A stretch of DNA of 64,000 nucleotides, taken from NCBI GenBank assembly GCA_963422735.1, contig OY730476.1:2784001-2848000 (forward strand), read 5' to 3'. Shown here piece after piece: positions 31 to 30,862 of this stretch. Both the position numbers and the translations under genes were made by a program. The stretch is from Candidatus Latescibacterota bacterium. GTDB lineage: Bacteria > Latescibacterota > UBA2968 > UBA8231. Numbering within the stretch: the first letter of the stretch is position 1; every line of letters begins with the position of its first letter. The notes under the pieces are model-generated. The model saw nothing but the letters and a program-made list of their open reading frames with translations, was not told the DNA's origin and did not search any database.

Positions 31-276
31 TTGCCGCGGTACAAGCCCTGTCTGTGGTGCAACGACCCGATGTATTTGCACCGGGGTCATTCCCTGTGCC
101 GGGATAGCATGGGTTGCGCCTACGTCGAGGCCGCGCCGGCCTACGCCTCAGCCTTGACGCTGCGGTGGGACGTCGCCTCGCGCACCGCGAGCGGGGTCTG
201 CTACCGCGTCGAGGCGCACGAGCACCACCGACTGCGCAAATGGTACGATCAACAGCGGCTGCGAAGCAACGCATGA
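31..276 (+). CDS. Small hypothetical phage protein
   Basis: ORF ends in an ATGA overlap with the next gene; CxxC near the N-terminus. Confidence 0.4.
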   Translation: MPRYKPCLWCNDPMYLHRGHSLCRDSMGCAYVEAAPAYASALTLRWDVASRTASGVCYRVEAHEHHRLRKWYDQQRLRSNA

Positions 277-914
277 GGATTCTGTGCAATGGGGCGTATG
301 CCCCCATCATGGCGTTGGCTCGCCATTCCGACTATGCGTCTCGACTGGGATGGCTGAACACGCCGCGCACAAAACTTTGTTGGAGCCGGTTGTTGGCTTC
401 GTCTTTGCCCATCGCCGCCGATAACTCGGCCTATTCGGCATGGTGTCCGCGGCGGTTTAGGCATTTTGTCCGGTCGATTCCCGAAGGCCGGCTTTTGTGG
501 TTGGCCGTGCCCGATGTGGTCGGCTCATCTGCCGGCACACAGGCGCGGTTCGACTACTGGTATCCTCAACTGAGTCAGCACCCACTGGCCTACGTAGCAC
601 AAGACCACAGCGAAAGCGATGCCACCATCCCCTGGAATTTAATCGTCGCCCTCTTTATTGGGGGGAGTACGCAATGGAAGTGATCCCAAGCGGTGTACGA
701 TCTCATCCAAGAAGCCAAAAGGCGCGACAAGATCGTACACATGGGACGCGTTAACAGCCATCGGCGACTGACATGGGCTTATCGCTGTGGATGTGATTCC
801 GTCGATGGGACCGGGTTCTCTCAATTTTCTCGCAACCATCTCAAGGCCGGGGTCGAGCATCTACTCTCCTTAGAAAGGCAACAGTCCCTGTTCCCCCCTA
901 GGAGGAGAGCATGA
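273..914 (+). pseudogene. TGT/DpdA-like (base-exchange TIM-barrel) phage protein interrupted by in-frame TGA at 681-683
   Basis: Motifs ADNSAY, VPDVVG, FIGGSTQWK*SQ, VHMGRVN, DSVDGT. ORFs 273-683 and 693-914 are in the same frame, separated only by TGA plus 3 codons. Confidence 0.65.
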
Positions 915-1003
915 AGAAATTCAAAGAGGTGTTGTCGATTCTCTTTCTGCTGTACAGCCTAGTCGTCATCGCCCATCATCTGGCGCGTTTCCTGTCCCCG
1001 TGA
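911..1003 (+). CDS. 30-aa single-TM peptide (MKKFKEVLSILFLLYSLVVIAHHLARFLSP); copy at 29740-29832
   Basis: GGAGGAG RBS, ATGA overlap, hydrophobic stretch. Confidence 0.4.
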   Translation: MKKFKEVLSILFLLYSLVVIAHHLARFLSP

Positions 1004-1048
1004 GACGCTGCTAGATGATGGACAGGATGACTGTCTCCACTGGGGCTG

Positions 1049-2023
1049 CTACGCGCTCCGCAGGATGAGCCGCTTGGCGAAGCGGACGGTCTCGGCGATC
1101 CCTCCCTCTAGCGACACCTTGGGCTCGTAGCCCAAGAGCGTCCGGGCACAGGTCAGGTCGGGGCAGCGTCGCTTGGGAGCATCCTCGTGTGGGTTAGGTT
1201 CATGTTCGATCCTGCTCTTGGACTGGGTGATACGTAGGACGGACTCGGCCACATCGAGGATCGTATGTTCTGCATCGTTGCCGATGTTGATGGGCTTTAC
1301 TATGGGCGAGCGCAGTAGGGCGAGTATACCGGCCACTATGTCGGATACATAGCACGGGCTGCGCGTCTGCCGACCGTCTCCCTGCACGGTCAGGGGCCAA
1401 CCGTGCAGGGCCTGCTCAACGAAGGTGGGCATCATGCGGCCGTCGTCCGACTTCATGCGAGGCCCGTAGGCGTTGAAGATGCGGACGATGCGGGTGTCCA
1501 GCCCATGCTTGCGATGGTAGGTCATCGTCAGTGCTTCGGCATATCGCTTGGCCTCGGCATAGACGCCCCGGACGCTGGTATGATCGATGTTGCCAGTGTA
1601 GGTCTCTGGCTGAGGATGAACCAGCGGGTCGCCGTACACCTCGCTGGTAGAGGCCATCAGGAAGGTAGCCCCCTCGTACCGGGCTAGTTCGAGGGCCGCT
1701 TTGGTACCTTGGGCTCCAGCTTCCAGTATCTCCATCGCCATCGACTCTACGAGCGTCGGCGTGGAAGGGCTGGCCAGATGAAGCACATAGTCGATAGAGC
1801 CAGACCCAACCTCTTTCATTAGTCTCGCCAGCAGGTGTTCTCCCTTCGACACGTTGGTCTGCAAGAACCGGAACGACGGGTTGTCCCACAGCAAATGGGA
1901 CAGGTTGTCGCCAGTGGATGTCAGGAGGCTGTCGAGGGCTATCACCTCATGCCTCTCAGCTAAAAGGGCGTCGCATAGGTGCGACCCTAAGAACCCGGCA
2001 CCGCCGGTGATGATTGTCCTCAT
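1049..2023 (-). CDS. NAD-dependent epimerase/dehydratase, UDP-glucuronate decarboxylase (UXS)-like SDR
   Basis: TGGAGFLGSHL, HLASP, ASTSEVYGDP, YxxAKR, RIFNAYGPRM, QTRSxCYVSD. Confidence 0.9.
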   Translation of the reverse strand: MRTIITGGAGFLGSHLCDALLAERHEVIALDSLLTSTGDNLSHLLWDNPSFRFLQTNVSKGEHLLARLMKEVGSGSIDYVLHLASPSTPTLVESMAMEILEAGAQGTKAALELARYEGATFLMASTSEVYGDPLVHPQPETYTGNIDHTSVRGVYAEAKRYAEALTMTYHRKHGLDTRIVRIFNAYGPRMKSDDGRMMPTFVEQALHGWPLTVQGDGRQTRSPCYVSDIVAGILALLRSPIVKPINIGNDAEHTILDVAESVLRITQSKSRIEHEPNPHEDAPKRRCPDLTCARTLLGYEPKVSLEGGIAETVRFAKRLILRSA

Positions 2024-2033
2024 GTGTCCTGTG

Positions 2034-2372
2034 CTAGTATGTCCTCTTGTAATGGGCCAGCAGTCGCTCGCGCCGGGCCAGCAACTTCTCTAGGGCGTTC
2101 ACGGCCTCGATGTCGCCTTGGGCCACCTTGGGCTGTATACTAGTCAGGGCCTCGTTGATGCGGGCTAGGTCGATGGCCCGTTGCACTTTCTGTTCGTCGA
2201 ACCGCATACCTGCCTCGGCGATCAGTTCCTCGGCGACGACCTCGGCGTCGACTTTCAGCACCTTGACGGACGTGCGGATGCCCTGCCGCTTCATCGCCTC
2301 GGCGATCTGTCTCATGGAGTAGCCTCGTATGATACAATCCTTGACGTAGGCTTGTCGCTCCGCTGCTTTCAT
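2034..2372 (-). CDS. HTH protein, terminase-small-subunit-like
   Basis: GYSMRQIAEAM HTH; C-terminal GDIEAVNALEKLLARRERLL typical of TerS-like proteins; ATGA overlap with the upstream gene. Confidence 0.55.
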   Translation of the reverse strand: MKAAERQAYVKDCIIRGYSMRQIAEAMKRQGIRTSVKVLKVDAEVVAEELIAEAGMRFDEQKVQRAIDLARINEALTSIQPKVAQGDIEAVNALEKLLARRERLLAHYKRTY

Positions 2373-3163
2373 TGCAGTCGTGGGTTGATCCGGTTCACTG
2401 CTATGTTGCAGGAGCGACCCGTCAGTCCAATGGCATGAGCCGCAGCGGACCGCTTGAAGGACACGGCCCGGCCCCATTTGACCTTGAGCCGTTCTTCGCC
2501 CTGATGGTACTCGTCCCCCGACACCAGCCCGGTGTTGCCGCCCTTATTCCCTGAGTCCAATGCACACGTGAACAGGACGCGCTGGTCGTACAGCATAGCC
2601 CGATCCTCGCGCAGTATCTCCAAGAAATGATCTACGTCCTCGCGGCCTCCGTCCGGGTAGTGCTGTAAGACCTTGGCGTTGCCCCGTATTATTCGGAGCC
2701 CACCGCCCATGGTACCCACCGCCTTGAAGGGTTTTACGATATTGTCTGTCGAGCCGAAGATCCATGCGGTGGGCATGTCGCCGCAGCCCCCCCACGTCAG
2801 GTCGAGGTCTTGCAGGACCCGCACCATGTTCTCGATGTAGTTCAGGGTCTCTGTGGGGCTGGCACTCAGGCAATTGTTGCCGTCGGCCATGATCTCGACC
2901 CCCTGCAGGTCGTCATCGACAAAGGCCAGCGCGTCCTCGCTAAAATCCTCTTTCATCTTATTCATCACGCCGGCGTATCCATGGACGGGTACATGGGTGG
3001 CCAGTAGGTCGTCTGGCACCGCGGACGCATAGTCGTCGCGCTCGCGCTCATCCACATACCAAGTGGCCGTGGGCAGCAGCTCGCGTACGGATGGCACGTT
3101 CTCTGATCGCTTGCGCGACGGTATGATGAGGCGATAGTCCAGCGTCGGGTCCGGCGTCAGCAT
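2369..3163 (-). CDS. GT-A glycosyltransferase, GREB1-like / TET-associated (TAGT) family
   Basis: IIPSRKR, VDERERDDY, FVDDDL (DxD), REDVDHF, NKGGN, LKVKWG. Confidence 0.75.
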   Translation of the reverse strand: MLTPDPTLDYRLIIPSRKRSENVPSVRELLPTATWYVDERERDDYASAVPDDLLATHVPVHGYAGVMNKMKEDFSEDALAFVDDDLQGVEIMADGNNCLSASPTETLNYIENMVRVLQDLDLTWGGCGDMPTAWIFGSTDNIVKPFKAVGTMGGGLRIIRGNAKVLQHYPDGGREDVDHFLEILREDRAMLYDQRVLFTCALDSGNKGGNTGLVSGDEYHQGEERLKVKWGRAVSFKRSAAAHAIGLTGRSCNIAVNRINPRLQ

Positions 3164-3825
3164 AGCAGGTTCAGCAGCTCTTTTCCGTGGATCGCCCGCA
3201 TGACGGGCGTGTTGGGGCGATAGGTCGGTACACTCAGACCCACCGCCTCGCACAGGGCGCGGTACTCGCGCCGGTTGGCCGACTGAATGACCAGAAAGTC
3301 GTAGTGCTCCCCGGTCTTCAGCTCCAGATCTCTTTCTGCATCGGTCTTGCTGTGGAGTCCGCCATCCTCGCTCGCCGTTGGGGGTGCATGCTGCTTGATA
3401 TGCTCTTGGATATCTTCCAAGATCGGATTGCTTTGAATGCTTCGGCCAATGCGTTCAACTATGCGCTGAAGCTTGTCCTTGGAGAAGCGAGCTGTGTCAC
3501 GGGTAGCGTCCAGCGTGGCCAGCAGCAGGTCGGCCTCCGCCTCGTTCAGGTCGGTCGTCAGCACGGGCACGTCGGCCTCGGGGTCGAGGTTGGCCCGCAG
3601 GTGGCCGTCGAGGATGCGCCAGCCGTCGCCGTGCGGATAGACCAAGATCGCTTGGGCCCAGCCTATCTGCTCTATTAGTTGGCGCACCTGCTCGACCTGT
3701 CGGCCGGGATGGAGGCGTATGTTGTCCGGGTGGGGTGCCAAGCTCTTGGCCGGCACGGTCATCAGGCCCGTGATTCGATTGGGCCAATCTGCTGTAAAAT
3801 CGTCTGGGCTTCGATGAATCTCCAC
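3157..3825 (-). CDS. ParB/Srx N-terminal domain protein B
   Basis: LAPHPDNIRLH, ILDGHLR, EADLLLATLD. Confidence 0.8.
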   Translation of the reverse strand: MEIHRSPDDFTADWPNRITGLMTVPAKSLAPHPDNIRLHPGRQVEQVRQLIEQIGWAQAILVYPHGDGWRILDGHLRANLDPEADVPVLTTDLNEAEADLLLATLDATRDTARFSKDKLQRIVERIGRSIQSNPILEDIQEHIKQHAPPTASEDGGLHSKTDAERDLELKTGEHYDFLVIQSANRREYRALCEAVGLSVPTYRPNTPVMRAIHGKELLNLLC

Positions 3826-4403
3826 CTTTTATTTCCCTTTCGGTCGATGTTCAGTATCTCGGATAGCTTCGTCGTGGTGCTCACGTCGGAAACGAAGACG
3901 ATCACCACATCGTCGTAGATGCCCTCGTAGTCCGCAATGGTGTCGCGCTGGTTGCGTTCCTTGGCTGACTCTGAGATGGGCTTGGTTGGCACGGGCGGAG
4001 GCTCGGCCTTGCGTCCAATGTCTGCTATGAGCCGACGCAGGGAGGCGTTGGGTCCGTCCACCCTCGGCAACAGCCGCTGCCAGGCGTCCAAGTCGACGTC
4101 CACATGGAGGCCGCTGGCGTCCAGCGTGGCCAGCAGCAGGTCGGCCTCCGCCTCGTTCAGGTCGGTCGTCAGCACGGGCACGTCGGCCTCGGGGTCGAGG
4201 TTGGCCCGCAGGTGGCCGTCGAGGATGCGCCAGCCGTCGCCGTGCGGATAGACCAAGATCGGCTTGACCCAGCCCACCTCGTCCATCAGGCCGCGCACCT
4301 GCTCGACCTGATGGGGTGGATGGAGGCGTATGTTGTCCGGGTGGGGTGCCAAGCTCTTGGCCGGCACGGTCGTCAGGCCCGTGATTCGATTCTTGAGGTC
4401 CAC
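3762..4403 (-). CDS. ParB/Srx N-terminal domain protein A
   Basis: Same ParB domain; DNA 4117-4391 nearly identical to 3506-3780; different C-terminus. Confidence 0.8.
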   Translation of the reverse strand: MDLKNRITGLTTVPAKSLAPHPDNIRLHPPHQVEQVRGLMDEVGWVKPILVYPHGDGWRILDGHLRANLDPEADVPVLTTDLNEAEADLLLATLDASGLHVDVDLDAWQRLLPRVDGPNASLRRLIADIGRKAEPPPVPTKPISESAKERNQRDTIADYEGIYDDVVIVFVSDVSTTTKLSEILNIDRKGNKRWRFIEAQTILQQIGPIESRA

Positions 4404-5116
4404 TCTTGTCCCCAGGGCGTTGACGAGGAGGACAGCTTGAGCATCTGCACCGTGCTAGCCATCCCGATGTTGTATAGGGCGTCCAGTATGCCGAGTCCAG
4501 GGAGCCACTCCCACTGCTGCTGGTCGTAAGGCCATGAGGTGAACCGGGAGCACCTCAGGTCTAGGCCCGCTTGCTGAAACACGAATGGGTTGAGGTAGTC
4601 TTTGGCTCCCGACCCGCTCAGGTAGGTCGATCCGCCTACGGCTTGTACGGCATCCACCAGTCGCTCGTTGGGGCTGTCGCGGAGCGGTTCGCCTAAGTTC
4701 GAGGAACGCACGATCTCCAAGCTCAGGCCCATGCACTCAGCCATGTGGATAATCAGTCCCGTGTTCAGGTCGGCCAGCCGGGATCTCTTGAGGAGGCCGT
4801 AGGCCAACGGGCGGTAGAAGGGTGCTTTGCCATAGCAGGCTTGCAGGGTGCGCCGGTGCTTGTTGTCCCATCCATCCCGCACGATCTCCACATCGCGGAT
4901 CGCTTGGAGCCTGCGTCCGCGGGTGCGTACCGGCACGGTCAGCCATTGCGGTTCGCCATGCGTCCCCCGGATAAGTACGCGGTTGGTGTAGTTGTTCTTG
5001 CTGTACTGTATGTCGTCCAAAAGCACCAACACATCCGACTGAAAGACTTTTTGCCAGAAGCCGATCCACGGCAGGTACGTTGGCTCGTGACAGCAAACCA
5101 CTTTTTGCAGGCTCAT
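4373..5116 (-). CDS. WbqC-like family protein
   Basis: HEPTYLPWIGFWQK, DDIQY, NRxxI, WLTVPV, YGKAPF, YLSGSGAKDY, GILDALYN. Confidence 0.9.
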   Translation of the reverse strand: MSLQKVVCCHEPTYLPWIGFWQKVFQSDVLVLLDDIQYSKNNYTNRVLIRGTHGEPQWLTVPVRTRGRRLQAIRDVEIVRDGWDNKHRRTLQACYGKAPFYRPLAYGLLKRSRLADLNTGLIIHMAECMGLSLEIVRSSNLGEPLRDSPNERLVDAVQAVGGSTYLSGSGAKDYLNPFVFQQAGLDLRCSRFTSWPYDQQQWEWLPGLGILDALYNIGMASTVQMLKLSSSSTPWGQEWTSRIESRA

Positions 5117-5141
5117 GGGTACGAATTCGCCTAGTCTCTTA

Positions 5142-5169
5142 ACTCCCGATAATATCCCTTATAGGGAGT
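5142..5169. other. dif/Xer-like 11-6-11 inverted-repeat recombination site ACTCCCGATAA-TATCCC-TTATAGGGAGT
   Basis: 11-bp arms (1 mismatch) with ATAA/TTAT inner ends and a 6-bp spacer. A perfect arm ACTCCCTATAA at 33360-33370 marks the element/host junction. Confidence 0.6.
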
Positions 5170-5175
5170 GCCAGC

Positions 5176-6312
5176 TCATCGGTATAGTCCGGTGATGGCA
5201 TCCACCACGCGGGACACATCATCATCGCTCATACCCGGGTGAATGGGCAGGTTGACCAGCATGCGGTAGACTTTTCGTGCATTGTGAAAATCGAAGGCAG
5301 CAGGACCCAATAGGCGGCGGTAGTAGGGTTGCATGTTTAGCGGCTTCCACAAGACGCCAGCCCCGATATGAAGGGTTTTCAGTCTATTCAGCACATCAGC
5401 GCGGGTGACGTCCGAGCGAGGGTTGATCCTGAGCGGATAGAGATGCCACGCATGGCGTCTGTGGTCTACCATTTCCGGTATGTACAGGTCGTGGATGTCC
5501 CTGAACGCACTGTTGTAGCACTGGGCTATGTGCGTCCTGTGCTCGATGGAGGCGTCCAGCCGACGGAGTTGGTGAATACCCAGCGCGGCCTGCAGGTCTG
5601 TCATGTTGTACTTGTAGCCCAGTTCCTCCACGTCGTAATCCCAGTTATGCTCGCGGGACCATGTCCTGCCGTGCATAGACAGCCTGCGCACCCGATCAAT
5701 TTTCTCCTTGTCCCCTGATGCTATCATGCCGCCGTCCCCCGTCGTCATGGACTTGGTGGCATAGAAGCTGAAGCATGTGAAGTCGCTGCCTAGGCCTCCT
5801 ACCCTCCTCCCTTCATACTCGGCCCCGACCGCATGGGCGGCGTCCTCAATGACCGCTAGCTGGTGTTTGTCGGCCATCTTGAGGATGGCGTCCATGCTGC
5901 ACACTTGGCCCCCGTAATGCATGACGATGATCGCCTTGGTTCGGTAGCTGATCTGCTGCTCAATATGCCTTGCGCTGATGTTCAAGGTGTGGAAGTTGCA
6001 GTCGACGAAGACGGGCGTGGCTCCGACATAGCGCACGGCGTGAGCCGTGGCGGCAAAGGTCAGGACCGGCACGATCACCTCGTCGCCGGGGCCGACCCCC
6101 GAGGCCAGCAGGGACAGGTGCAGGGCGGCTGTCCCTGAGCTGACGCCGACGATGTAGTCGGCTTGACAGTAGGCTGCAAACGCCTGCTCGAACTGCTCCG
6201 TCTTCGGACCTCTGGTGATCCAGCCCGACTCCAGCACGTCGATCAACTCTTGCTTTTCCTCGGGGCCGAAGGATGGAGGGGCGAAAGGAATGGGTCGGGT
6301 GCTGTGCTGCAT
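5176..6312 (-). CDS. DegT/DnrJ/EryC1/StrS PLP aminotransferase
   Basis: SSGTAALHL, GPGDEVI, EDAAHA, FSFYATKSMTTGDGGM, GYKYNMTD. Confidence 0.95.
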   Translation of the reverse strand: MQHSTRPIPFAPPSFGPEEKQELIDVLESGWITRGPKTEQFEQAFAAYCQADYIVGVSSGTAALHLSLLASGVGPGDEVIVPVLTFAATAHAVRYVGATPVFVDCNFHTLNISARHIEQQISYRTKAIIVMHYGGQVCSMDAILKMADKHQLAVIEDAAHAVGAEYEGRRVGGLGSDFTCFSFYATKSMTTGDGGMIASGDKEKIDRVRRLSMHGRTWSREHNWDYDVEELGYKYNMTDLQAALGIHQLRRLDASIEHRTHIAQCYNSAFRDIHDLYIPEMVDHRRHAWHLYPLRINPRSDVTRADVLNRLKTLHIGAGVLWKPLNMQPYYRRLLGPAAFDFHNARKVYRMLVNLPIHPGMSDDDVSRVVDAITGLYR

Positions 6313-6348
6313 GGATGTAAGGTAGGCCGCTTCGCTTGTACCGTCAAT

Positions 6349-6588
6349 ATACACACACTAATGGGTGTTATTTTTAGTCGATTTAGTCGTCCTTCCTTTT
6401 CAGTTCAAAAAAGACCCAATCGTCGTAAGAGGCCGCAAACGGCCTTTTCTGGCTAGTTTAGTCCGATCTTATATCCATACATACCTAGTACTAAGGAAGA
6501 CGATTTCAATATCTAGGCCCGCTCTCGCCCTTTTCCACAGCCTCAGACGATTCCCCTTCCCCTACGCCTTTCGGGCACAGGCTGTCTC
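6349..6588. repeat. ~240-bp non-coding direct repeat, copy 1 (copy 2 at 11774-11998)
   Basis: Near-identical sequence with one 15-bp indel; AT-rich; contains hairpin aggccg-caaa-cggcct. Confidence 0.9.
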
Positions 6589-6695
6589 AGTGTCTCCCAG
6601 AGGCACACAAAGAAGCAGCCAAAAAGACCTACACAAAGAGGTGTAATTCTCCATTGGGAGAAGTAGGATATGCACTATAGGGTGTAGTTTATAAT

Positions 6696-6755
6696 GATAA
6701 AATTATATCATTTTACACTTGACCTTGTATTGGTATTTCGTACGTTGAGGGTATG
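6696..6755 (+). promoter_or_regulatory. Repeated sigma70-like phage promoter, copy 1
   Basis: TTGACC-N16-TACGTT-N6-ATG; related copies at 8179-8223 and 25430-25490. Confidence 0.55.
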
Positions 6756-6785
6756 ATAACCACCACCACAAGGAAGGACGAGAGC

Positions 6786-7430
6786 ATGAGCGGTATTACT
6801 TTTCACGGGGAGAAGCCGGATGATCGCCTGTATCGCCTCGGCCCCCAAGCCTTGCGCGACATCGAGATCTTGGCCATCTGCGTAAGGGATTCGAGCAAGG
6901 CCGAATACATTCTCGACAAGCACTCGAAAGAGTCGCTTGTCGACATGGACTTGAGTAAGATTATGAAGTTGGGCGTTCCCAAGTCCAAGGCCCAGGTGCT
7001 AGTGGCCGCGTTTGAGTTGGCGCGGCGCGGCCTGGGCAAGGGCTTGGGTATCAAGCCCGCCATCACTTCCCCTAGCGATGGGGTAGCGCAGCTTCAGGGC
7101 ATAGCGGACCATCAGCGCGAGCACTTCGTCTGCTTGTACCTGAATGCCCGCAACCAAGTCATTCACAAGGAGGTCGTCTCCATCGGCAGCCTGTCGGCGG
7201 CCATCGTCCACCCGCGGGAGGTCTTCCGCGAGGGCGTTGTTCGGAGCGCGGCTAGCGTGATCTTGGCACACAACCATCCGTCCGGCGACGTGTCGCCGAG
7301 TCAGGACGACATCAACCTGACGCGGCGCTTGGTGCAGGCCGGCGAAATCATGGGCATTGACGTGCTCGACCACCTCATCATTGGCAGCGACGACTTCCTC
7401 AGCATGAAAGAGAGAGGATTGATGTCATGA
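6786..7430 (+). CDS. radC: RadC (JAB/MPN domain) protein
   Basis: REHF, GSLSAAIVHPREVF, AHNHPSGDVSPSQDD, LDHLII. Confidence 0.92.
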   Translation: MSGITFHGEKPDDRLYRLGPQALRDIEILAICVRDSSKAEYILDKHSKESLVDMDLSKIMKLGVPKSKAQVLVAAFELARRGLGKGLGIKPAITSPSDGVAQLQGIADHQREHFVCLYLNARNQVIHKEVVSIGSLSAAIVHPREVFREGVVRSAASVILAHNHPSGDVSPSQDDINLTRRLVQAGEIMGIDVLDHLIIGSDDFLSMKERGLMS

Positions 7431-7467
7431 ATATCAATCACTCCAGACAATGAGGAGCGTCTGAGGC

Positions 7468-8169
7468 ATGGAGCAACTGACGCTGTTTGAGCGCGGTAGG
7501 CCCCACCCAGCCAAGTACTCGGCCGGTGTGATTGTCGATGCGTTTGCTCGCCTGATCCCGGCCCCTGCGCTGGTGCTAGACCCTTTTGGTGGCGTGGGCG
7601 GCATCCACCATCTACGCAAGCTCGGCGAGTACCGCACGGTAGCCGTCGAGATAGAGCGCGAATGGGCGATGGCCTCCCCCGGGCACACCGTGCAGGGTGA
7701 CTCCACCTGCCTGCCTTTTGCGGACGACACGTTTGACGCCGTGGCGACCAGCCCAGCCTACGGCAACCGTATGGCCGACTCCAATCCGCCGTCTCCCAAG
7801 AATGCCAATTTTGTTGCCCGAAAATATCAGTTCTTGCTGGGCCGCAAGATGCACCCTAACAATGGATCCTCTATGCACTTTGGAGTGCCCTACCGGAAAC
7901 TCCATACTGAGGTCTGGCGGGAGGTCCGGCGGGTACTGCGGCCCGGTGGTGTGCTGCTGTTGAACATGAAAGACCATATCCGTCGTGGAGTTCCGCAGCC
8001 AGTTGTCGCTTGGCACTGCACTACCCTGAGCGGCTTGGGGGGGTTCCACATGGACACGATCTGGGGACTCTCGACGCCAGGAATTCCGATTGATAAGTGG
8101 CAGCGCAACGCTAAGAAAGAGCGATGCGGTGACGGGGAATTGGTGGTGAGGTTCTTTCTTAACAAATAA
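7468..8169 (+). CDS. Orphan amino (N4-C/N6-A) DNA methyltransferase
   Basis: LDPFGGVG SAM-binding motif, TSPAY catalytic motif, RVLRPGG. Confidence 0.75.
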   Translation: MEQLTLFERGRPHPAKYSAGVIVDAFARLIPAPALVLDPFGGVGGIHHLRKLGEYRTVAVEIEREWAMASPGHTVQGDSTCLPFADDTFDAVATSPAYGNRMADSNPPSPKNANFVARKYQFLLGRKMHPNNGSSMHFGVPYRKLHTEVWREVRRVLRPGGVLLLNMKDHIRRGVPQPVVAWHCTTLSGLGGFHMDTIWGLSTPGIPIDKWQRNAKKERCGDGELVVRFFLNK

Positions 8170-8178
8170 TTTTACCAT

Positions 8179-8223
8179 TTTTACACTTGACATACGGATG
8201 ATGCTTCGTACGTTGCGGGTATG
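8179..8223 (+). promoter_or_regulatory. Repeated promoter, copy 2
   Basis: TTGACA-N16-TACGTT-N6-ATG. Confidence 0.55.
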
Positions 8224-8247
8224 TTAACCACCACAAGGGGGTAAAAG

Positions 8248-8454
8248 ATGAAAGATCGCACCCGAGACTTTTTGGTCGGCTACTTGCAGACGATGCCGGA
8301 CTGCGTGGCCAAGGCGGCCCTAGAGGACGCCTTGGCTATGGGTAGCATCTGCTACTTCGGCCACCTGATCGCCGACCTGATGGCCGGCGAGTACATCACG
8401 GTCCATCGGGCCAGCAGCCTGCTCGACCTGATCGCCACTGGGGAGGGCTATTAG
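8248..8454 (+). CDS. Hypothetical phage protein
   Basis: AAGGGGG RBS; start of a closely packed operon. Confidence 0.55.
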   Translation: MKDRTRDFLVGYLQTMPDCVAKAALEDALAMGSICYFGHLIADLMAGEYITVHRASSLLDLIATGEGY

Positions 8455-8455
8455 G

Positions 8456-8743
8456 ATGAGCCCACAAGCCGCAGCCGAGATTTTGAGGTTGACCGCCTTG
8501 GATGGCAATCTGGGAACCGATGCCGCTAAGGCGATTGATGCCGCCTTTTGCAAGTACCCAACGTGGCCCGAGTTCAGCATGGCCGCTTGGTCAAACCTAG
8601 TCGGCGAAGTGGCCCGATGCGCTTCCTATTTACCCACCGGCAATGCCGAAGCGTGGGCTTGGGTGGCTCGCCAAGCTTTGGAACTGTCCCTAGCGCACTC
8701 GCCCATGAACAACGATGGGCACTTTTGGCAAAGTGACAGGTAG
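8456..8743 (+). CDS. Hypothetical phage protein
   Basis: GGAGGG RBS; tight spacing. Confidence 0.55.
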   Translation: MSPQAAAEILRLTALDGNLGTDAAKAIDAAFCKYPTWPEFSMAAWSNLVGEVARCASYLPTGNAEAWAWVARQALELSLAHSPMNNDGHFWQSDR

Positions 8744-8749
8744 GGTGAT

Positions 8750-9847
8750 ATGACACTCGCCGAGCGCATAAAGGAGATCGTGGGAGATCGCGGCTTCCGC
8801 TGGTCGCGCTCCTACGAGCACCAGTACAAGCAGATGCCCAGCCAGTGGCGGTCCAAGCTGCGGTCAATGGGCTTGATCGCCCGGCTGGATGACGACGAGG
8901 CCGTCCGGTCGGACGTGGTGGTCGAGGCCATCGGGCTGTCCGACGAGGACGACCTGCTTCGGGCTATAGCCGACCGCGAGCGGCTGCTGTCTGAGGACCA
9001 CGAGGAGATGCCGATGGACTACACGGACGACGAGGCCGCCTTTGGCTCGCTGGAGGTGCATCCGGCCCTTGCCTGCCTGCCGGTTGGCATGGATCTGACG
9101 GACTCGATCGAGGCCGATGGCCTAGCCCAGCCCATTGTCTTGGACGCTCAGATTCGCATCGTCGATGGTCGCTCACGGTTGGCCGCTTGCTTGGCGACAC
9201 AGACGCCCGTGCGATGGGTCTCCTTGGCTGACATTGCGCCGGGCATGGACCCGAGCGTGTATGTGATCATGTCCAACTGCGGTCCCCGGCGGTCGCTGAC
9301 AGCCAAAGAGAAGGCGGTCGCTGTCGCTCGCATCGTGCGCTCCGTGCGCAGCGCACAGGTCGTCTCTTTGGCGCGAGCGAGCGAGGTCAACAGGATGTAT
9401 GTCGAGTACGCCTTGAGCATCATGCGAAGCGATGAGGCAGACCTCATCGCCGCCCTCGACAGCGACTCGACGCCGCTCTACAAGCTGTACCACGAGCTGC
9501 GTGAACGCATCCGCCAGCGGGAGCAAGCCCGCGCCGACAAGCTGCTCGATGCGTGGATGAAGATCTACCAGCCCCATATCCCGATGGACCGCTGGCTGCC
9601 TGCCAGAGGCCAGTCCACCACGGACACCCTCTCGGCGACGGGCTTGTGCTTGTGGCGCAAGGCCGAGGAGGATAGGCCGTCGGGGTACGGGGAGTTGGTA
9701 GTCGGAGACGTGGAGCTGGCCGAGGCAGATAGGCCGTTGGAGGTCCCACTGGAGGAGTGGCCCCGCGACGCACTAATACAAGAAGTTCGCCATCTCCGGG
9801 CCCTTTTGGACTCGGCGGGCATCCCCCACCATCATCACAAGGAGTAG
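8750..9847 (+). CDS. ParB-like domain protein
   Basis: VHPAL, SIEADGLAQPIVL, IVDGRSRLAAC, SNxxxRRSLT. Confidence 0.7.
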   Translation: MTLAERIKEIVGDRGFRWSRSYEHQYKQMPSQWRSKLRSMGLIARLDDDEAVRSDVVVEAIGLSDEDDLLRAIADRERLLSEDHEEMPMDYTDDEAAFGSLEVHPALACLPVGMDLTDSIEADGLAQPIVLDAQIRIVDGRSRLAACLATQTPVRWVSLADIAPGMDPSVYVIMSNCGPRRSLTAKEKAVAVARIVRSVRSAQVVSLARASEVNRMYVEYALSIMRSDEADLIAALDSDSTPLYKLYHELRERIRQREQARADKLLDAWMKIYQPHIPMDRWLPARGQSTTDTLSATGLCLWRKAEEDRPSGYGELVVGDVELAEADRPLEVPLEEWPRDALIQEVRHLRALLDSAGIPHHHHKE

Positions 9848-9853
9848 AAAGTC

Positions 9854-10135
9854 GTGAACGAAATCCCTAGGGGCAAGAAAGACATCCGGGTGGGGCGATC
9901 CAAGCCTGGCCGCTACGACAAGTCCCAGTGGGGAGGCTTTCGCCGCCTCGCTTGCGCGGTGATCATCCGTGCGGTCTTTGACCTGAGCAACGAGCAGGAG
10001 CGGGCCTCGGCTCGTTGCTTCTTGTTGGACGACTGCAACCCGTGGGCTGAGGCCAGCGAGATCGCCGACATCCACGAGCGGCTAGCGGCCATCGTCCGCG
10101 AGAGCGACCTACTACTAGAGAGGGATGAGACATGA
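9854..10135 (+). CDS. Small phage protein (RRLACAVIIRAVFDL family)
   Basis: AAGGAG RBS; similar to host ORF 43661-43909. Confidence 0.6.
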   Translation: MNEIPRGKKDIRVGRSKPGRYDKSQWGGFRRLACAVIIRAVFDLSNEQERASARCFLLDDCNPWAEASEIADIHERLAAIVRESDLLLERDET

Positions 10136-10752
10136 AGATCGGTTCGCACTACGACGTCCCGCAGGTACGGGCCATCTGGCGGGCCACCGTCCCGCGCTGG
10201 CTGCCGGTGCTCGGCCCGCTGCACATGGACGAGGAGTTGAATTTTGCTCATTGGCATTGGCACATCGATCAGCGGTTTCTGCCGACCCCCATCTACCGCC
10301 AGTGCCTTAGCGAGACGAACCCCCCATCTCCCCATTACTTATACAACTTTCCGATCATGGTAGGCCTCGTTGTTCCTCTCGGCCGTCGCACCGTCAACGA
10401 CGAGACGGGCTACATCGTCGGCGTCAATCCCAAGTGGCATTCGGCGGAGTATGAGCGCACCGTCTCCGACTATCTGCGGTCGCTCCCGCGGGAGACTTGG
10501 CTCCGCGTGAGCCGTATGACCTACAAGAGGCCCTTCGAGCGCTGCGAAGCTCACGCCTCGCTGCGGTCAAAGCTGGCAGTCACCCACCGCGGTGCGACGC
10601 TTAACCTGCGTCGCACCGTTTGCCCACACCGAGGCGCAGACCTGTCCGGCATCGAGCCGGTGGACGGCGTGATCACCTGCCCACTGCACGGAATGCAGTT
10701 CTGCGCTCGAACCGGAAAGGCAATCCACCCAACCACAGGAAGGAGGGCATGA
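10132..10752 (+). CDS. Protein with C-terminal Rieske [2Fe-2S] domain
   Basis: CPHRGADL...ITCPLHGMQF (CxH...CxxH). Confidence 0.8.
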   Translation: MKIGSHYDVPQVRAIWRATVPRWLPVLGPLHMDEELNFAHWHWHIDQRFLPTPIYRQCLSETNPPSPHYLYNFPIMVGLVVPLGRRTVNDETGYIVGVNPKWHSAEYERTVSDYLRSLPRETWLRVSRMTYKRPFERCEAHASLRSKLAVTHRGATLNLRRTVCPHRGADLSGIEPVDGVITCPLHGMQFCARTGKAIHPTTGRRA

Positions 10753-10853
10753 AGAACGAGTATCATTTGCGGCATGCCCCAAGAGGTCGCTCAAGCGATT
10801 GCCGACCGCGGCACAATCGTTGTCGAGTTCCTGTAAGGGGGCTAGTTATGGGC

Positions 10854-10898
10854 GAAAGCCCCCGGATATGGAGATGGTTCCGTCCGGGGGCTTTCTTT
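10854..10898. terminator. Intrinsic (probably bidirectional) terminator
   Basis: gaaagcccccgga...tccgggggctttc followed by T-run, between convergent genes. Confidence 0.7.
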
Positions 10899-10952
10899 GA
10901 TCCGATGAGTGCGGACTGGCTCAAGGCCGGCCCGCCTCGGGATCGTTATGTC

Positions 10953-11204
10953 TCAGTTGGATAAAAATCTAGATACGAATATAGGGTAGAGAAGTACAAT
11001 GTTAATGCCAAGCGACACGAAAAGGGAGAGACCCAAGCAGCGTCTATTGCTTCGGAGTCGCCTCTCCAGCTTATTGAATGATTCCAGCAGGATGACCAAT
11101 CCCTTCGATGACGACTTAGGCGTCGCAGGGTCCAAGCTGCGGATGCGTTCAAACTGATCGACTTTGCAACGGATGTTGCGGCGTTCCCCTTTTGGCTTTG
11201 TCAT
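10953..11204 (-). CDS. Hypothetical protein with C-terminal TM helix
   Basis: GAGGGGAG RBS; LGLSLFVSLGINIVLL. Confidence 0.5.
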   Translation of the reverse strand: MTKPKGERRNIRCKVDQFERIRSLDPATPKSSSKGLVILLESFNKLERRLRSNRRCLGLSLFVSLGINIVLLYPIFVSRFLSN

Positions 11205-11224
11205 CGTACTCCCCTCTTTCGGAG

Positions 11225-11680
11225 TTAGGTCCTTTTCTTTTTTAAGTGGTATCGGCTCTTTTGCCACTCGCTGGCCTTGCGTCCACAGTCCTCGCACAGC
11301 CGCCGGTTGGGCCTAGCCGGACGAGCACAGCGAATGCACTTACCCGTCGCAGCGCGAAGATTGTATCGCTGACCATGATCCCTCTTAGTTAGCTTCGAGC
11401 ACGCGGCACACAGCGTGGAGCCCTCCAGCCTCGGGCGGTTGCACCGACCGCACCGACCGCTAGACAGGCGCACCCTACGCCGTTTCCTATGATTAGCCAA
11501 GCACGCCTCGCATCGACCGCCTCTACCCTTGCCACCTCTACAATCCTTGCCGCATTCGAAGCATTTGCCCGACGCGACGCGCTTCCGATACCATTCTCGC
11601 CGCTTAGCCAAGCACATCTCGCATCGGATACGATCCGGTCTCTTGACTTCGTTGCCACAACTACACCTTTTCTTACTCAT
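11225..11680 (-). CDS. Cys-rich, basic multi-zinc-ribbon protein
   Basis: Repeated CxxC pairs (GKCFECG, GRCGRC, GKCIRC). Confidence 0.6.
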   Translation of the reverse strand: MSKKRCSCGNEVKRPDRIRCEMCLAKRREWYRKRVASGKCFECGKDCRGGKGRGGRCEACLANHRKRRRVRLSSGRCGRCNRPRLEGSTLCAACSKLTKRDHGQRYNLRAATGKCIRCARPARPNRRLCEDCGRKASEWQKSRYHLKKKRT

Positions 11681-11773
11681 ACAGGCTACCCCTTTTTGAA
11701 TACTTGTCAAGGTAGGGTGATGCAGTCTTTGTGTCAAGTGTATTTTTAGGGTGCGTCGATGGCTACGGACGAC

Positions 11774-11998
11774 ATACACACACTAATAGGTGTTATTTTT
11801 AGTCGATCTATTCGTCCTTCCTTTTCAGTTCAAAAAAGACCCAATCGTCGTAAGAGGCCGCAAACGGCCTTTTCTCGCTAGTTTAGTCCGATCTTATATC
11901 CATACATACCTAGTACTAAGGAAGACGTCCGCTCTCGCCCTTTTCAACAGCCTAAGACGATTCCCCTTCCCCTACTCCTTTCGGGCACAGGCTGTCTC
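11774..11998. repeat. Non-coding direct repeat, copy 2
   Basis: Matches 6349-6588. Confidence 0.9.
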
Positions 11999-12127
11999 TC
12001 CTTCTTCACGTTGGTGTTTCCGATCCTCCATCTGCTAGGCTCCAGTGCGCCCCATTGAACCAGGCCACCAGCGAGTAGCGCATCCCCGGTGTCTGCTCAG
12101 GCGCGAAGTGCGCCTAGCATTAGCTGG

Positions 12128-12502
12128 TCACTTTCTCTCCCCTATATCCCATATAGCCAGCTTATCGCCGGGGAAGGTTAGGCGGCCATTATTAATCCCG
12201 TAGGATACTTCGCCATCCTCGGGCTCAATGCCGATGTAATCCCAAGGGTACGTGTGATAGACCCACTCCCCTTTTGACAGCACAGTCGCCGTCAACCCTA
12301 GGCGCGACCAGTAGAGTAGGCCGGGGCGGTCATACATGCAGCGTGTCCCATTAGCTACGCCTTTGGCTACAAAAGACAGTCGTATGGCAGGGCCTGATTC
12401 GGTAGTAACTTCTTCGGGGGCGATAAGGGCCTGATCCTTAGAGCAAGCACCTAGGCCTAGTACAGCGACTAGGATGGCGCAGATGATGCATCGGTAAAAC
12501 AT
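12128..12502 (-). CDS. Lipoprotein
   Basis: GGAGG RBS; signal peptide ending in lipobox LGAC. Confidence 0.65.
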   Translation of the reverse strand: MFYRCIICAILVAVLGLGACSKDQALIAPEEVTTESGPAIRLSFVAKGVANGTRCMYDRPGLLYWSRLGLTATVLSKGEWVYHTYPWDYIGIEPEDGEVSYGINNGRLTFPGDKLAIWDIGERK

Positions 12503-12645
12503 GGATTACCTCCACACTAGAACCAAAGGAATTAGGGTTGTCAATTGGCAATTATAATCATTGCCAGAAGAAAAATAAAGGGAAGGGTAAGAGGCGGCCT
12601 GTACTTAGGGACGACAAGTGCCCCTTCGTGCATGCCCGCGTTCCT

Positions 12646-12963
12646 TTAGGATGAGGGTTTCGGTCGCAGCGTATCTAATTGCGCTACGATCGACTCGAGG
12701 ATCTCGCACTGCGCCGACAGACGCTCCAAGCCGATAATCAGCCCAATCGGGCCGAGCTCTTTGCGCGTCGCCTCGCATTGGTGCTCAAGGTTGTTGTAGA
12801 GTCCGCTCAGGTGCTGGTGAAGCTGAGCCAGCGCGTCGTCGTCGCCCTGCTGGCCGAGCAAGCCCTGGAGGCTTTCGAGGGCATCGGCCTCCTCTTGAGG
12901 GGTTGTGGCCGCGCCCAACGTTGCGGCGGCACCGACGATTTGCTCTTTGTCATTCGGGTTCAT
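12646..12963 (-). CDS. Hypothetical phage protein
   Basis: GAGGAG RBS; ATGA overlap. Confidence 0.5.
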   Translation of the reverse strand: MNPNDKEQIVGAAATLGAATTPQEEADALESLQGLLGQQGDDDALAQLHQHLSGLYNNLEHQCEATRKELGPIGLIIGLERLSAQCEILESIVAQLDTLRPKPSS

Positions 12964-13163
12964 TGTACAATCTCCTCGACGGCCTCTCGCCATCCGTCCG
13001 GGGGGCTGTCGCCGGAGTCGGACCACTCAATGAGCCGACAGGCTTCGGCACAGACCAACAAGTGCTCGCCCAAGGCCCGGCGCAAGGGGTCGCCTTCTTC
13101 GGTCAACTGTTCACCGAGCCTGCGCACCGCCTGATATTGATACTCCCAACTTCCGCCACTCAT
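12960..13163 (-). CDS. Hypothetical phage protein (MSGGSWEY...)
   Basis: GGAGGAG RBS; ATGA overlaps on both sides. Confidence 0.55.
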   Translation of the reverse strand: MSGGSWEYQYQAVRRLGEQLTEEGDPLRRALGEHLLVCAEACRLIEWSDSGDSPPDGWREAVEEIVQ

Positions 13164-13456
13164 TCGGCCGGCTCCTCCGCGGTGGCAAGTTCGTCCAGTG
13201 CGGTCTGCAAGGGAGTGGTCGTATCGAGGAGGGCTTGCCTTTCGAGCTGGCCGCGCTCGACCTCCTCCCGTGCGTTCTTCGCACAGCAGGTGAAACATTC
13301 GGCTTTCTGCGGGTTGGTGTCTTTGGCCGCGGCGGCCTTCTTAGTCCAAAAATCAGCCTCCTCCTCTTTCTCTTGGATATAGTTCGTCCAAGTTTGGACT
13401 AACTCGTTTTGTTGAGTCAGTGCCCCTTGCAGTCGTTGCTGAATAGATTGAGACAT
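13160..13456 (-). CDS. Hypothetical coiled-coil protein
   Basis: AAGGGAG RBS; downstream of the fibre gene. Confidence 0.55.
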   Translation of the reverse strand: MSQSIQQRLQGALTQQNELVQTWTNYIQEKEEEADFWTKKAAAAKDTNPQKAECFTCCAKNAREEVERGQLERQALLDTTTPLQTALDELATAEEPAE

Positions 13457-13495
13457 GATCGTCTCCCTTCTGGGGGTAAACGTTGAGATAGTTGA

Positions 13496-14662
<1,167 letters not shown>

Positions 14663-17600
14663 TCAAGCCTTTCCGTAGTAGGGCCCGGCCACATCGTCGT
14701 CATTAACGTAGGCGACGCGCACTTGGTACTCCGTTTCGGGCTGCAACCCCCAGATGATATATGTACCATGAGTATCTTTTGGCAGGAACGCTTCCGACAT
14801 AGGCACAAAAGGCGAGGTGGCCAAGCCCCACTGTATGCGAGTGCGATAGATGCTCGATGGGTCAAAGATCACGCGCAGGCTCGTATCGCCAGCCGCCACC
14901 ACCCTGACCGCCGCGGGCGCATCGGGCACCGGCGACACCGGGGCCGCCTGAGTCGTTGCGCTACGCGAGCGAGCGTCCGAGAGTGGACTGCTCTGTACTC
15001 GGTAGCGCAACTGAACCACGTACGCCGTGTTCGGCTCCAACCCTCGGATGATGTAGGGGCCGTCGCCCAGCCCCGCGGCGATGCCGACCCGCCGGTCGAA
15101 GCCACCCCCACTGGCGGCGGTACCCCACTCGACCTGAGCGGTCAGACCGTACGTGGACGGCAGGGTGAACCGCACCGCGATCGTCGTGTCGGTGCAGTCG
15201 GCGGCGTCGATGGCGGGAAACTCCGTCGCCGTAGGCAGGCCGGGCGCGGTAGCCTTAGCCGGCGGCGGCGATGCCACATAGATGGCAAAATCCTCCTCGA
15301 TGGACTGATCGCCCTTACTGGCTCGCCACGTGATTCTAAACAACCCTTCCTTGATCGGCGTCCCCGTGATGCGCCCTGTCGTCGTTTCGCTTAGGGCCAA
15401 GCCCGCCGGCAGGCTCCCGTAGAGGATGCCATAGGTAATATCGTCTTGGTCGCCCTTAACCAACGGGAGCTGAAACGGAGTCGTGGTATCGACCGTTTCG
15501 CCTTGTGTCAGCGAGGGAATATGTCGAGTGCCGAAGACCAAAGGCGGCGGCGTGGCAGGGGCCGGCGACGGCGTGAAGCGGATGTACCGGTCCGTGTCTC
15601 TTAGGTAGTAGTCCCCGGCGACGCCAGCGGGATTGCGATGGCGGACGGTAACGCGATATTCGACCCCCGGCTGCAGGTTCGAGATGATATATTCCTGCCC
15701 GTAGGATACCGCGTTGCCCGCCGGGTGCCACTGGGCACCTTCGAGATACTCCCACTCCAGTTCGGTAAAAAAGTCGCCGCTGGACGTCCAGTGGATCGTC
15801 GCCGAGGTGGGGGTGCGCTCATTTCGGGGTACGCGGACGCCTTCGGGTGCTGGCGGCGCAGGCACCGGAGCTTGGTATCGATCGACGATCTGTGCAGGAT
15901 ACCAGTTGGTTGCCAGCGCGGCGTCGGGCGACCACGTGCGCAGCAGCAGCCAGACGGCCGGCTGCTGCGCGGTGGCAGCCGGCGGCTGCACATGGGCCGG
16001 GCGACCGTCGAGGGTCGGCCGGAAGTGCTCGTTGGTTTTCTCCCCATCGGTCTGGTCTGCTATCGTCGGATAGGGGTCGGACGGGCCTGTCCAGTAGGCC
16101 CGCTGCGGACGCTGGACCACCGGCGCAGGATGAACCGTCAGCGTCCGGTCCATCTCAGCCGATTGTGCCCCGTCGATGGCCTGCCACACCAGAGAGTAGT
16201 CGCCCACACGCGTCGGCGTCCCCGTGATGCACCCCGCGGTGGTCTTACTCAAGGTCAGACCTGCAGGCAGGCTCCCATACAGGATCGAATACGCCTTGAC
16301 GTCGTCTAAGGCGGCGACCGTCGGCAGTTGCAAGGGGTTGGACGTGTCGATGGGCTGACCGACCACCAAGCGTGGGAGATGCTCGGTAGATACGTCGAAT
16401 CGGATAGTAGCCGGGGTCGGCTTGGTCTTCGCCGAGCGCGAGCGAGCGTCTGAGAGCGGACTGCCCTGTACCCGGTAGCGCAACTGGACGACGTACGCCG
16501 TGTTCGGCTCCAGCCCTCGGATGATGTAGGGGCCATCGCCCAGCCCCGCGGCGATACCAACCCGCCGGTCGAAGCCACCCCCGCTGGCGGCGGTACCCCA
16601 CTCGACCTGAGCGGTCAGACCGTACGTGGACGGCAGGGTGAACCGCACCGCGATCGTCGTGTCGGTGCAGTCGGCGGCGTCGAGGGCGGGAAACTCCGTC
16701 GCCGTAGGCAGGCCGGGCGCGGCCGGGGCCGGCGTAGGCTCCGTCGCCTTGCTCAGCACTAGGTCGCCGCTGGCCGTGCCGAAAAAGTTGCGGTAGCGCA
16801 CCTTGATCGGGTACGTCTTCCCTCCATCCAATCCCCTGATCACGTAGGTGCTGTATATGCCCGAGGCGATGCCGTGCCGCGTGTAGTTCCCGCTCTCGGG
16901 GTAGCCCCACTCGACTTCGGCGTAATGGCCCCCCATCAGCCCGGTGATAGCCACACTGATGGTGTTGTGCGTCGCGGTCAGGACGATCTCGGAGGACTGC
17001 GGGTCGGCGGGGGCGGGCAAAGAGGACGGATCGCCGGCGACGAGAGTTAGGCCATCCCGCTCCACTTGTACGGGCGTCGAGGCGGTCCACAGGGTGTAGG
17101 TCTGTGGACTAGTGCCTGTCAGTTTGCGCTCAATGCGCCAGATTATGGGGTGGTCCCTGGTGGGCGCGGGCAAGCTCCGCGCCCACCCCGTCGGCGTGTA
17201 GTTAGGGTCGAGGTGCGGCATGGACTGCACGGCCTCTGGAACAGTCGGTAGAGTGTCCGTGCCGATCTGGTAGGCGTATTGGACGACGGTGGTGGGTAAC
17301 GGGTAGATCGTCCCGGTCGCTGCTTTCGACTCATTGCCGGTCGTGTCGACATGCTTGATCGCATAGGTGCGCATAGCCGGCGTCTCGCTTATGCCGTCGG
17401 CTGGCAGTATGACGATCTCATTGGCCGATGTCTTGTAGGGGGTCGCAGTCGATCCATCCACAGCGTCTGTGATTAGGGTATGGTCGTAGTCGTCCTCTGT
17501 TGGGTCTGTCCACGTCAGCCGGTATCCGCCGGCCAACTCGGAGACGGACACCCCCGCGGGCGCAGCAGGCGCAGCAGTATCTTTGGTGGAGACGGCAGCC

Positions 17601-25631: not shown

Positions 25632-26276
25632 ATGAAAACTTGCTTGGTCGTTGGGGCGCACCCCGACGACATGGAGCTCGGATGCTGCGCCACCGTCCTC
25701 AACTTGATCGAGCGGGAGTGGGATGTGTGGTCGTTGGCCTTGGCGGACAACACGTTGACAGTCGTCGGTCAGGGCTTCGATGACTGTCATTTTCAGGCGG
25801 AGCGGCAGGAGGCCGCTCAGGTGCTGGGCATCCCGCAGGATCGCTTGCTGACGCACCGCTTCCCGGTGCGCGACTTCCCAGCACACCGGCAGGATATTCT
25901 GGAGCACCTATACAAGATGGTGCGCGACATGGAGCCAGAGATGGTTTTGTGTCCCTCGTCCACCGACATCAATCAGGATCACTTGGTCGTCTATGAGGAG
26001 ACCGTCCGGGCCTGCACGGGCATACCCTGCTCGATATTTGGGTACTACCTGCCGTGGAACAACCGGCAGGTTGGCCTCACCTTCTTCTCCTCTTTCACCG
26101 AGAAGTACATGTCCTTGAAGGAGGAGGCGCTGGCTTGCTATCGCTCCCAGGCCCACCGGCCATACATGCGGCCCGGGGCCGCCCGGGCTTTTGCGCAAAC
26201 GATGGGCACGTGCAGCTATGTCCTCCCGTTGGCCGAGCCGTTGGAGCCCATCCGGTGCATGTTGAGTGCATCATAG
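25632..26276 (+). CDS. PIG-L / LmbE family deacetylase
   Basis: GAHPDDMELG, RQDIL, DINQDH, K..AL.CYRSQ. Confidence 0.9.
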   Translation: MKTCLVVGAHPDDMELGCCATVLNLIEREWDVWSLALADNTLTVVGQGFDDCHFQAERQEAAQVLGIPQDRLLTHRFPVRDFPAHRQDILEHLYKMVRDMEPEMVLCPSSTDINQDHLVVYEETVRACTGIPCSIFGYYLPWNNRQVGLTFFSSFTEKYMSLKEEALACYRSQAHRPYMRPGAARAFAQTMGTCSYVLPLAEPLEPIRCMLSAS

Positions 26277-30852: not shown

Positions 30853-30862
30853 GTGTCCTGTG

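Follow-up and report, generated by a model that had tools for sequence, protein, structure and literature searches.

The closest described counterparts of the locus reported here are the sites of Xer and related tyrosine recombinases, and the accounts given below are those in the relevant passages of each paper. The 11-6-11 dif sites are cleaved at the extremities of the spacer (PMC8371274; likewise PMC5357621), and the IMEXs described so far target a chromosomal dif with XerC-side homology (PMC5357621). XafT relaxes the XerD arm, yet still acts at dif1 (PMC9226527). In vivo, Cre recombines sites whose spacers do not match and sites in which one arm has been randomised, and it has an endogenous substrate in loxB (PMC2018622). 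Plasmid prophages commonly carry ParA-Ib/RHH pairs and Xer-family recombinases; partition-type genes are no proof of a plasmid life style (PMC8026635). Finally, Tn1549 has 11-bp imperfect inverted repeats, a variable crossover region of 5-7 nt and a TTTT-n6-AAAA target (PMC5871717), and a 6-bp footprint is left by SEs and Tn554 (PMC10214605).

We analyzed a 64,000-nucleotide stretch of a Candidatus Latescibacterota contig, hereafter the window, and examined the 11-6-11 site that a preliminary description had placed between wbqC and degT. The site was present as described: its arms pair at 10 of 11 positions around a 6-bp spacer, and it lies in a 59-bp gap between two genes that are both on the minus strand. 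Two 11-bp arms, a 6-bp centre and ATAA/TTAT inner ends, the layout of a dif site, were all present. The site is the sole example of an ATAA-n6-TTAT core across the 64 kb, where shuffling predicts 0.18 per window. In the shuffled 64 kb, 0.9 11-6-11 inverted repeats pairing at 10 or more of 11 positions were expected, so the palindrome alone is unremarkable. No further copies of the arms were found in the window at up to 1 mismatch besides those at 5142-5169 and 33360, and three 13-of-17 look-alikes, at 6669, 12145 and 38641, were near chance (about 1.6 expected by our own estimate).

Features of the window and of the junctions discussed in the text.
Feature	Coordinates	Strand	Remarks
Complete 11-6-11 site	5142-5169	.	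Left arm 5142-5152, spacer 5153-5158, right arm 5159-5169
wbqC-like gene	4373-5116	-	Left of the site
degT-family aminotransferase, 378 aa	5176-6312	-	Right of the site
Repeat copy A	819-5152	+	Epimerase, 147-aa phage protein, glycosyltransferase-like gene, two ParB-like genes, wbqC
Repeat copy B	29648-33370	+	97-99% identity to A; phrog_15826-family gene cut at the left end
Single perfect arm ending copy B	33360-33370	+	Exact reverse complement of 5159-5169 (11/11)
Defective tailed-phage segment, 28,212 bp	5159-33370	.	Bounded by two perfect 11-bp inverted repeats
ParA (208 aa) and ribbon-helix-helix protein, type Ib partition pair	26417-27264	+	NF041546
Foreign 6-bp spacer and degenerate partner half-site	33371-33387	+	TT at 6-bp distance
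37-nt stub	33371-33407	-	Shine-Dalgarno 33389-33382, ATG 33377-33375; not in relatives
Conserved host gene, 426 aa, no Pfam family	33418-34698	-	Orthologues 93-95% aa in 21 loci

Other kinds of site were considered at this position. An intrinsic terminator, an alternative named in the preliminary description, was rejected on finding 0 stem-loops with a T run in 4900-6900, and a promoter was rejected in the absence of any promoter match there; the predicted fold at the site was unremarkable (z -1.26). The crossover of a serine integrase falls at the palindrome centre, and a telomere resolvase requires a centre that is itself palindromic, so both were rejected on anatomy. A lambda-type attP/attB pair was rejected as well, the overlap between the core inverted repeats not being identical (the spacers at 5142 and 33360 differ). 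The site region gave one match only to the phage collection, at E=4. A search with Rfam over the DNA returned tRNA only, and the tRNA-Lys(CTT) at 44808-44883 (+) lies in the host part, away from the element border.

Self-comparison of the window revealed a direct repeat of about 3.7 kb (819-3780 and 4117-5152 against 29648-33370, at 99.4% and 96.9% identity) whose end coincides with the arm/spacer border. Identity between the copies ceases at the final base of the arm, as had been claimed, and the following four bases are all mismatched. The complete site, which lies between two co-oriented phage genes, is the join of repeat copy A with the degT end of the phage segment, and where copy B ends the change from arm to unrelated DNA falls exactly on the arm/spacer border. 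Since the terminal arm is the exact reverse complement of the right arm of the site, the segment between them has perfect 11-bp terminal inverted repeats. The chance that one breakpoint falls on the arm/spacer border is 0.02%; allowing ten breakpoints raises it to 0.2%, and allowing in addition any inverted repeat pairing at 10 or more of 11 positions with a spacer of 5-8 bp raises it to 1.4%. It is this coincidence, and not the palindrome itself, that carries weight.

The coincidence also bears on another reading, in which the gap between degT and wbqC contains an operator or hairpin and the junction is an illegitimate deletion or fusion at, or provoked by, this palindrome. About one such palindrome per 64 kb is expected by chance, the region has several other non-native joints (29647/8 and the 611-bp deletion in copy B), and the stub past the arm is unexplained, all of which would suit this reading. 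Given the exact border coincidence (0.2-1.4%), the likeness of the arms to XerC arms and the lack of a terminator or promoter match, however, we hold it to be quite doubtful.

We compared the two copies of the repeat gene by gene. The four genes that they share differ by 14 synonymous and 10 non-synonymous changes, against a neutral expectation of 0.295 synonymous (P=0.003), and wbqC holds 7 of the 10 amino-acid replacements. By this synonymous excess, the copies diverged as functioning genomes under purifying selection, and they are thus two related phage genomes joined at the site. Copy B is the deleted copy, because it starts inside a gene that is full-length in A and because its two ParB-like paralogues have been fused by the 611-bp deletion; around copy A, the same phage context extends leftwards beyond the repeat. 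Counting cluster members, a measure blind to identical or broken copies, gave one member each, on one contig, for DegT and for a 1653-aa tail protein, and two for the repeated glycosyltransferase-like protein. These counts speak against a simple tandem of two whole prophages, and what lies upstream is probably less than a complete second copy of the element. The same comparison makes it very improbable that the arrangement is an assembly artefact, in which variants from different strains, or a phage present as a free circle, were stitched into the chromosomal sequence. The source contig is probably metagenome-assembled, as judged from its relatives, which would leave room for such an error, but the copies differ by dozens of substitutions with a synonymous bias and by a clean deletion between paralogues, and both lie on one 4.95-Mb contig.

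To the right of copy B, the preliminary description had the sequence switching to host DNA exactly at the border, and this did not hold. We retrieved 76 loci with the conserved host gene (from the best 80 of 121 confirmed matches; best 95% aa identity), 21 of which are close relatives, mostly labelled Ca. Latescibacterota, with 93-95% aa and 89-94% nt identity. In 21 of the 21, homology to the conserved host DNA stops at 33410-33418. The host border thus lies 40-48 bp beyond the arm, and the arm ends the phage repeat, not exactly at the host border. BLASTN with 1-33359 gave 0 matches across the 76 loci, and the site was also absent from them. Four arm matches at up to 1 mismatch were found in 1.4 Mb of loci. 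One of these, in a single relative of the 21 (L002), lies just past the host gene inside a host hairpin and is a weak lead; the hairpin (11306-11372) is long and imperfect (z -2.1), and the 10/11 arm match within it occurs in L002 alone.

The 37 nt between the arm and the host border have a strong Shine-Dalgarno sequence and an ATG whose minus-strand frame enters the arm and is closed by a stop after six codons. We found no significant match to 33371-33407 within 300 nt of the empty site in any of the 21 relatives (lowest shuffle fraction 0.05). The stub resembles the beginning of an accessory gene that was interrupted, and the arm would have been joined into it at a variable spot. As for the interrupted gene itself, no frame beginning M-P-V-I was seen at the empty site among the 164 M-P starts of 1919 SD-preceded frames of the 76 loci, among the matches listed. 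In copy B, wbqC now follows the captured start codon at a distance of 41 bp. Taken as a partner half-site, the DNA beyond the arm matches the element arm at 2 of 11 positions (5 of 11 with a 7-bp spacer) and published dif arms at 2-3 of 11, the TT at 6-bp distance being the only part kept; the frequency of TT in the host part is 0.039. The two spacers, that of the complete site and that at the 33360 junction (n = 2), share 0 of 3 bases next to the cut.

The empty site has varied neighbours. After the host gene, 14 of the 21 relatives have a spermidine-synthase-domain gene (13 found by clustering and one more, broken, in L004), and the remainder have a DUF6785 gene (4), an oxidoreductase (1), an FGE-sulfatase-domain gene (1) or an Ssp defence island (1). 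In the last, L034, an Ssp phosphorothioation island (SspC, SspD) follows straight after the same host gene at 5170-15155, which marks the spot as a site for foreign DNA.

We compared the arms with the dif table of PMC3025954 (rows of supplement 2 and text passages), in which Latescibacterota are not among the phyla. The Firmicutes left arm named in the preliminary description occurs there 29 times, and this Staphylococcus/Listeria arm matches the arm at 33360 at 10 of 11 positions (T variant); the Solibacter left arm matches the arm at 5142 equally well, at 10 of 11 (G variant), and the Gemmatimonas arm matches the element arms at 7-8 of 11. Both element arms are thus 9-10/11 to published XerC-side dif arms, and because both T (Staphylococcus) and G (Solibacter) find a match, the sole difference between the window's arms is natural XerC-arm variation. 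The outer arm letters of the window occur in no row of that table. The XerD core TTATGT is in neither arm, TTATAG and TTATCG standing in its place (6/11 to the XerD side), while the core TATGT occurs 617 times in the table of PMC3025954. With XerC-like arms and no XerD core, the site is thus an XerC-arm/XerC-arm palindrome. Unlike a conserved host site, moreover, it sits in phage DNA, and no conserved ATAA-n6-TTAT dif was found within 10 kb of the empty site in the relatives.

These results bear on whether a host Xer system (XerC alone or XerCD) acts on a phage dif-mimic, in the manner of an IMEX, at a pseudo-dif near the terminus. In keeping with this, the arms resemble XerC-side arms as described and no recombinase is visible in the window. 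On the host side that is retained, 4-fold sites show a strong strand skew (0.01 vs -0.43 by gene direction), and in the relatives this skew is weak or reversed beyond the insertion point, over the 10 kb that are visible, as might be the case near a terminus; for GC skew of the whole sequence across the empty site, gene direction is a confounder. A dif-like 28-mer is also present in the 3' end of the nearby DUF6785 gene in 18 of 21 relatives (L004, 13678-13705), at 44-97 nt from the host stop in four lineages. Its best haplotype scores up to 18/22 against published dif arms (shuffle P about 0.002), though the best is only 14-15 in most of the nearest relatives of the window, and it matches the element's own arms at 12-14/22. 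Aligned globally with the window's junction it gave P 0.04 in the nearest relative (L019) and 0.19-0.77 in the other 17. Going by these alignments, the 28-mer is not what lies at the junction, and we retain it as a lead.

Several observations run against host Xer use. The XerD arm is on neither side, and the partner is 2-3/11 to dif. The 28-mer is coding, is without a XerD core, is missing in 3 of 21 relatives and is not at the window's junction (P 0.04-0.77, 18 loci), and there is no polarity in GGGNAGGG counts. Homology at the cut is 0 of 3, whereas VGJ, TLC and GGI sites target dif and retain XerC-side homology, as described in passages of PMC5357621. We regard host Xer use as unlikely. Of the proposal that the element uses a Xer-type enzyme, then, the Xer anatomy, the XerC-like arms and a rearrangement junction at the predicted cleavage position stood; the IMEX-like use of a host dif did not, with TTATGT lacking, the partner degenerate, nothing shared at the cut, no conserved ATAA-n6-TTAT dif within 10 kb of the empty site in relatives, and a host border 40-48 bp past the arm.

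Set beside the known systems, the site shares with XerCD/dif and archaeal XerA/dif the 11-6-11 layout, the ATAA/TTAT inner ends, a junction at the spacer edge and XerC-like arms, and differs from them in being without a XerD arm, near-perfectly symmetric, within a phage operon and joined to a non-dif partner. With the IMEXs (CTX, VGJ, TLC, GGI, EludIMEX-1) it shares a dif-like site on the element and a tandem arrangement, and no integrase is seen in the window, from which the element, itself deleted, extends past base 1; unlike them, the element is a tailed phage with no chromosomal dif target and no XerC-side homology (0/3). P1 Cre/loxP and loxB, together with the Xer-family resolvases of plasmid prophages, offer a symmetric site for one enzyme and a degenerate chromosomal partner, as here, and phage partition genes, for which the window has a candidate in the pair of its accessory block; but loxP is 13-8-13 where this site is 11-6-11, and here no enzyme is seen and any plasmid state is putative.

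The region 1-33370 is phage-derived, with neck, tape-measure, tail and fibre families and with ParB-like, methylase and sugar-nucleotide genes. Family searches (Pfam on 69, 8, 87 and 4 frames, PHROGs on 38, NCBIfam on 30) detected no capsid, portal, large terminase or recombinase, in agreement with the earlier statement that no integrase is visible in the window, and a recombinase catalytic motif was present in 0 of 267 stop-to-stop frames of at least 100 aa. Because head and large-terminase genes are missing as well, and the element continues past base 1, the missing integrase is weak evidence for a host enzyme. WbqC, ParA and DegT had distant matches only (<47%) in the phage collection. The ParA scored E 3.7e-47 and 160.5 bits against NF041546, under the 180-bit cut-off, and its ParA-Ib/RHH pair, in an accessory block beside defence genes, may stem from a plasmid.

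Several further features of the segment were observed. The ATPase and DUF4276 pair at 27361-29134 (+) corresponds to the PADLOC models HEC-01A and HEC-01B (E 1e-136 and 9e-71), and from there to the copy-B junction run short gene fragments with no family match, which we take to resemble the start of a type I restriction subunit and a DNA methylase. A phrog_15826-family gene at 273-914 (+) is broken up by a single in-frame TGA (681-683), which points either to decay or to read-through. The 147-aa protein at 2034-2477 (-) is similar to unnamed viral clusters and has no large subunit after it; it may resemble a small terminase subunit. A sugar-nucleotide set (1049-6312 and 25632-26276), consisting of an epimerase, WbqC, DegT, a PIG-L deacetylase and a glycosyltransferase-like gene, possibly serves DNA or virion modification. 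Among the tail genes, the tape-measure region at 20763-23572 (-) is in two frames of 521 and 396 aa, the first of which alone matches tape-measure families; the 1653-aa tail protein (14663-19624, -), with fibronectin-III and Ig-like repeats, had no relative but itself among 7998 candidates scored, and next after it comes a collagen-repeat fibre at 13496-14590.

There are also repeats. A 240-bp non-coding direct repeat (90%) lies at 6349-6588 upstream of degT and at 11774-11998 upstream of a zinc-ribbon gene, and another repeat, which looks like a promoter, is found ahead of plus-strand genes at 6711, 8179 and 25446; these could be repeated phage promoters that enable cassette exchange. Short dispersed direct repeats occur in the host DNA (39244-39332/48694-48790) and in the tail region (18560-18625/23768-23833).

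The terminal inverted repeats would also suit a dedicated tyrosine integrase that acts independently of homology, like those of Tn1549/Tn916, SEs or Tn554. Integration at AA-n6-TT-like targets would be the normal route, the arms would be the terminal inverted repeats, and the 6-bp spacer would be coupling sequence or a footprint from an earlier target. The locus shares with these elements the 11-bp terminal inverted repeats and a non-conserved 6-bp spacer (n = 2 here), in line with the repeats and crossover of Tn1549 and with the footprint of SEs and Tn554; the window's spacers differ, and TT follows at 6 bp. In contrast to them, the cargo is a tailed phage, the arms are Xer-like, no int/xis or SE core genes were found, and the genes at the two ends are wbqC and degT. 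Neither an integrase of this sort nor a helper gene is near either end, whereas SE int genes sit at one end (PMC10214605), no conjugation genes were seen, and only two spacers are available. We therefore think such an integrase rather unlikely.

We consider it likely that a tyrosine recombinase, of one kind or another, used the site. The reading that we tentatively favour, at a probability of about 0.42, is that the palindrome is the core site of a phage-encoded Xer/Cre-like resolvase and was joined off target without spacer homology. That unrelated DNA, and not the site of the host itself, lies joined to the arm suggests off-target action of a phage recombinase, and since the arms are alike, one homomeric recombinase probably binds both. 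Counted in favor of this were the border coincidence, the symmetric and XerC-like arms, the lack of a terminator or notable fold, the divergence of the repeat copies, the tolerance of Cre for unmatched spacers, the ParA-Ib/RHH pair and the Ssp island at the same spot. Counted against it were the lack of a recombinase in the window, the far (left) junction, for which a 23-letter pattern of the right arm and degT flank had 0 matches among GTDB genomes with the window's own context excluded, the lack of a relative with the element, the possible plasmid origin of the ParA/RHH pair, the cluster-member counts and the many breakpoints of the region. Homology of 0/3 next to the cut is also unusual for ordinary Xer/Cre strand exchange. 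From its sequence, then, 5142-5169 appears to work like a Xer/Cre core site and, by the tests run, does not appear to be a dif site or a member of the IMEXs; this is on the strength of one junction only.

If the favored resolvase reading is correct, the enzyme would most likely be a Xer-like resolvase encoded by a phage able to replicate as a plasmid, and the normal role of the site would be dimer resolution. The enzyme would have cut the top strand after 33370 and attached it, with no use of spacer homology, to a pseudo-site that is one-sided and sits within the opening codons of an accessory gene; this target would be a hot spot for foreign DNA. Replication or repair may have completed the joint (compare loxP x loxB). 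A related phage genome would then have been added in tandem, via the site or by homologous recombination, and with mismatched spacers the array could not have excised cleanly and would have decayed.

A bolder possibility is that a tailed Latescibacterota phage routinely integrates through a symmetric XerC-arm/XerC-arm site where the spacers have no homology and the target offers hardly any half-site, the work being done by a single Xer-type enzyme, which could be the phage's own or else host XerC acting without XerD. We think this improbable, though not extremely so. Were it true, the phage would behave as a tyrosine transposon able to land in gene starts and pile up in tandem, and its sugar-modification operon would come to lie behind a ribosome-binding site captured in this way. 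Word searches of a partial literature collection returned no report of the element or of such a site in Latescibacterota phages.

Phage tyrosine integrases normally require matching overlap sequences, and elements that exploit Xer go to dif. A tailed phage joined at a Xer-like site to a target that does not match would tie the integration of phages to the homology-independent route of Tn1549 and SEs, would explain a prophage end that lacks direct repeats and would be missed by repeat-based prophage finders, and might lead to a recombinase that is less demanding of its target. If this was only an off-target act of a plasmid-phage resolvase, it would be a loxB-type event in nature, modest in interest, from a phylum on which few studies exist.
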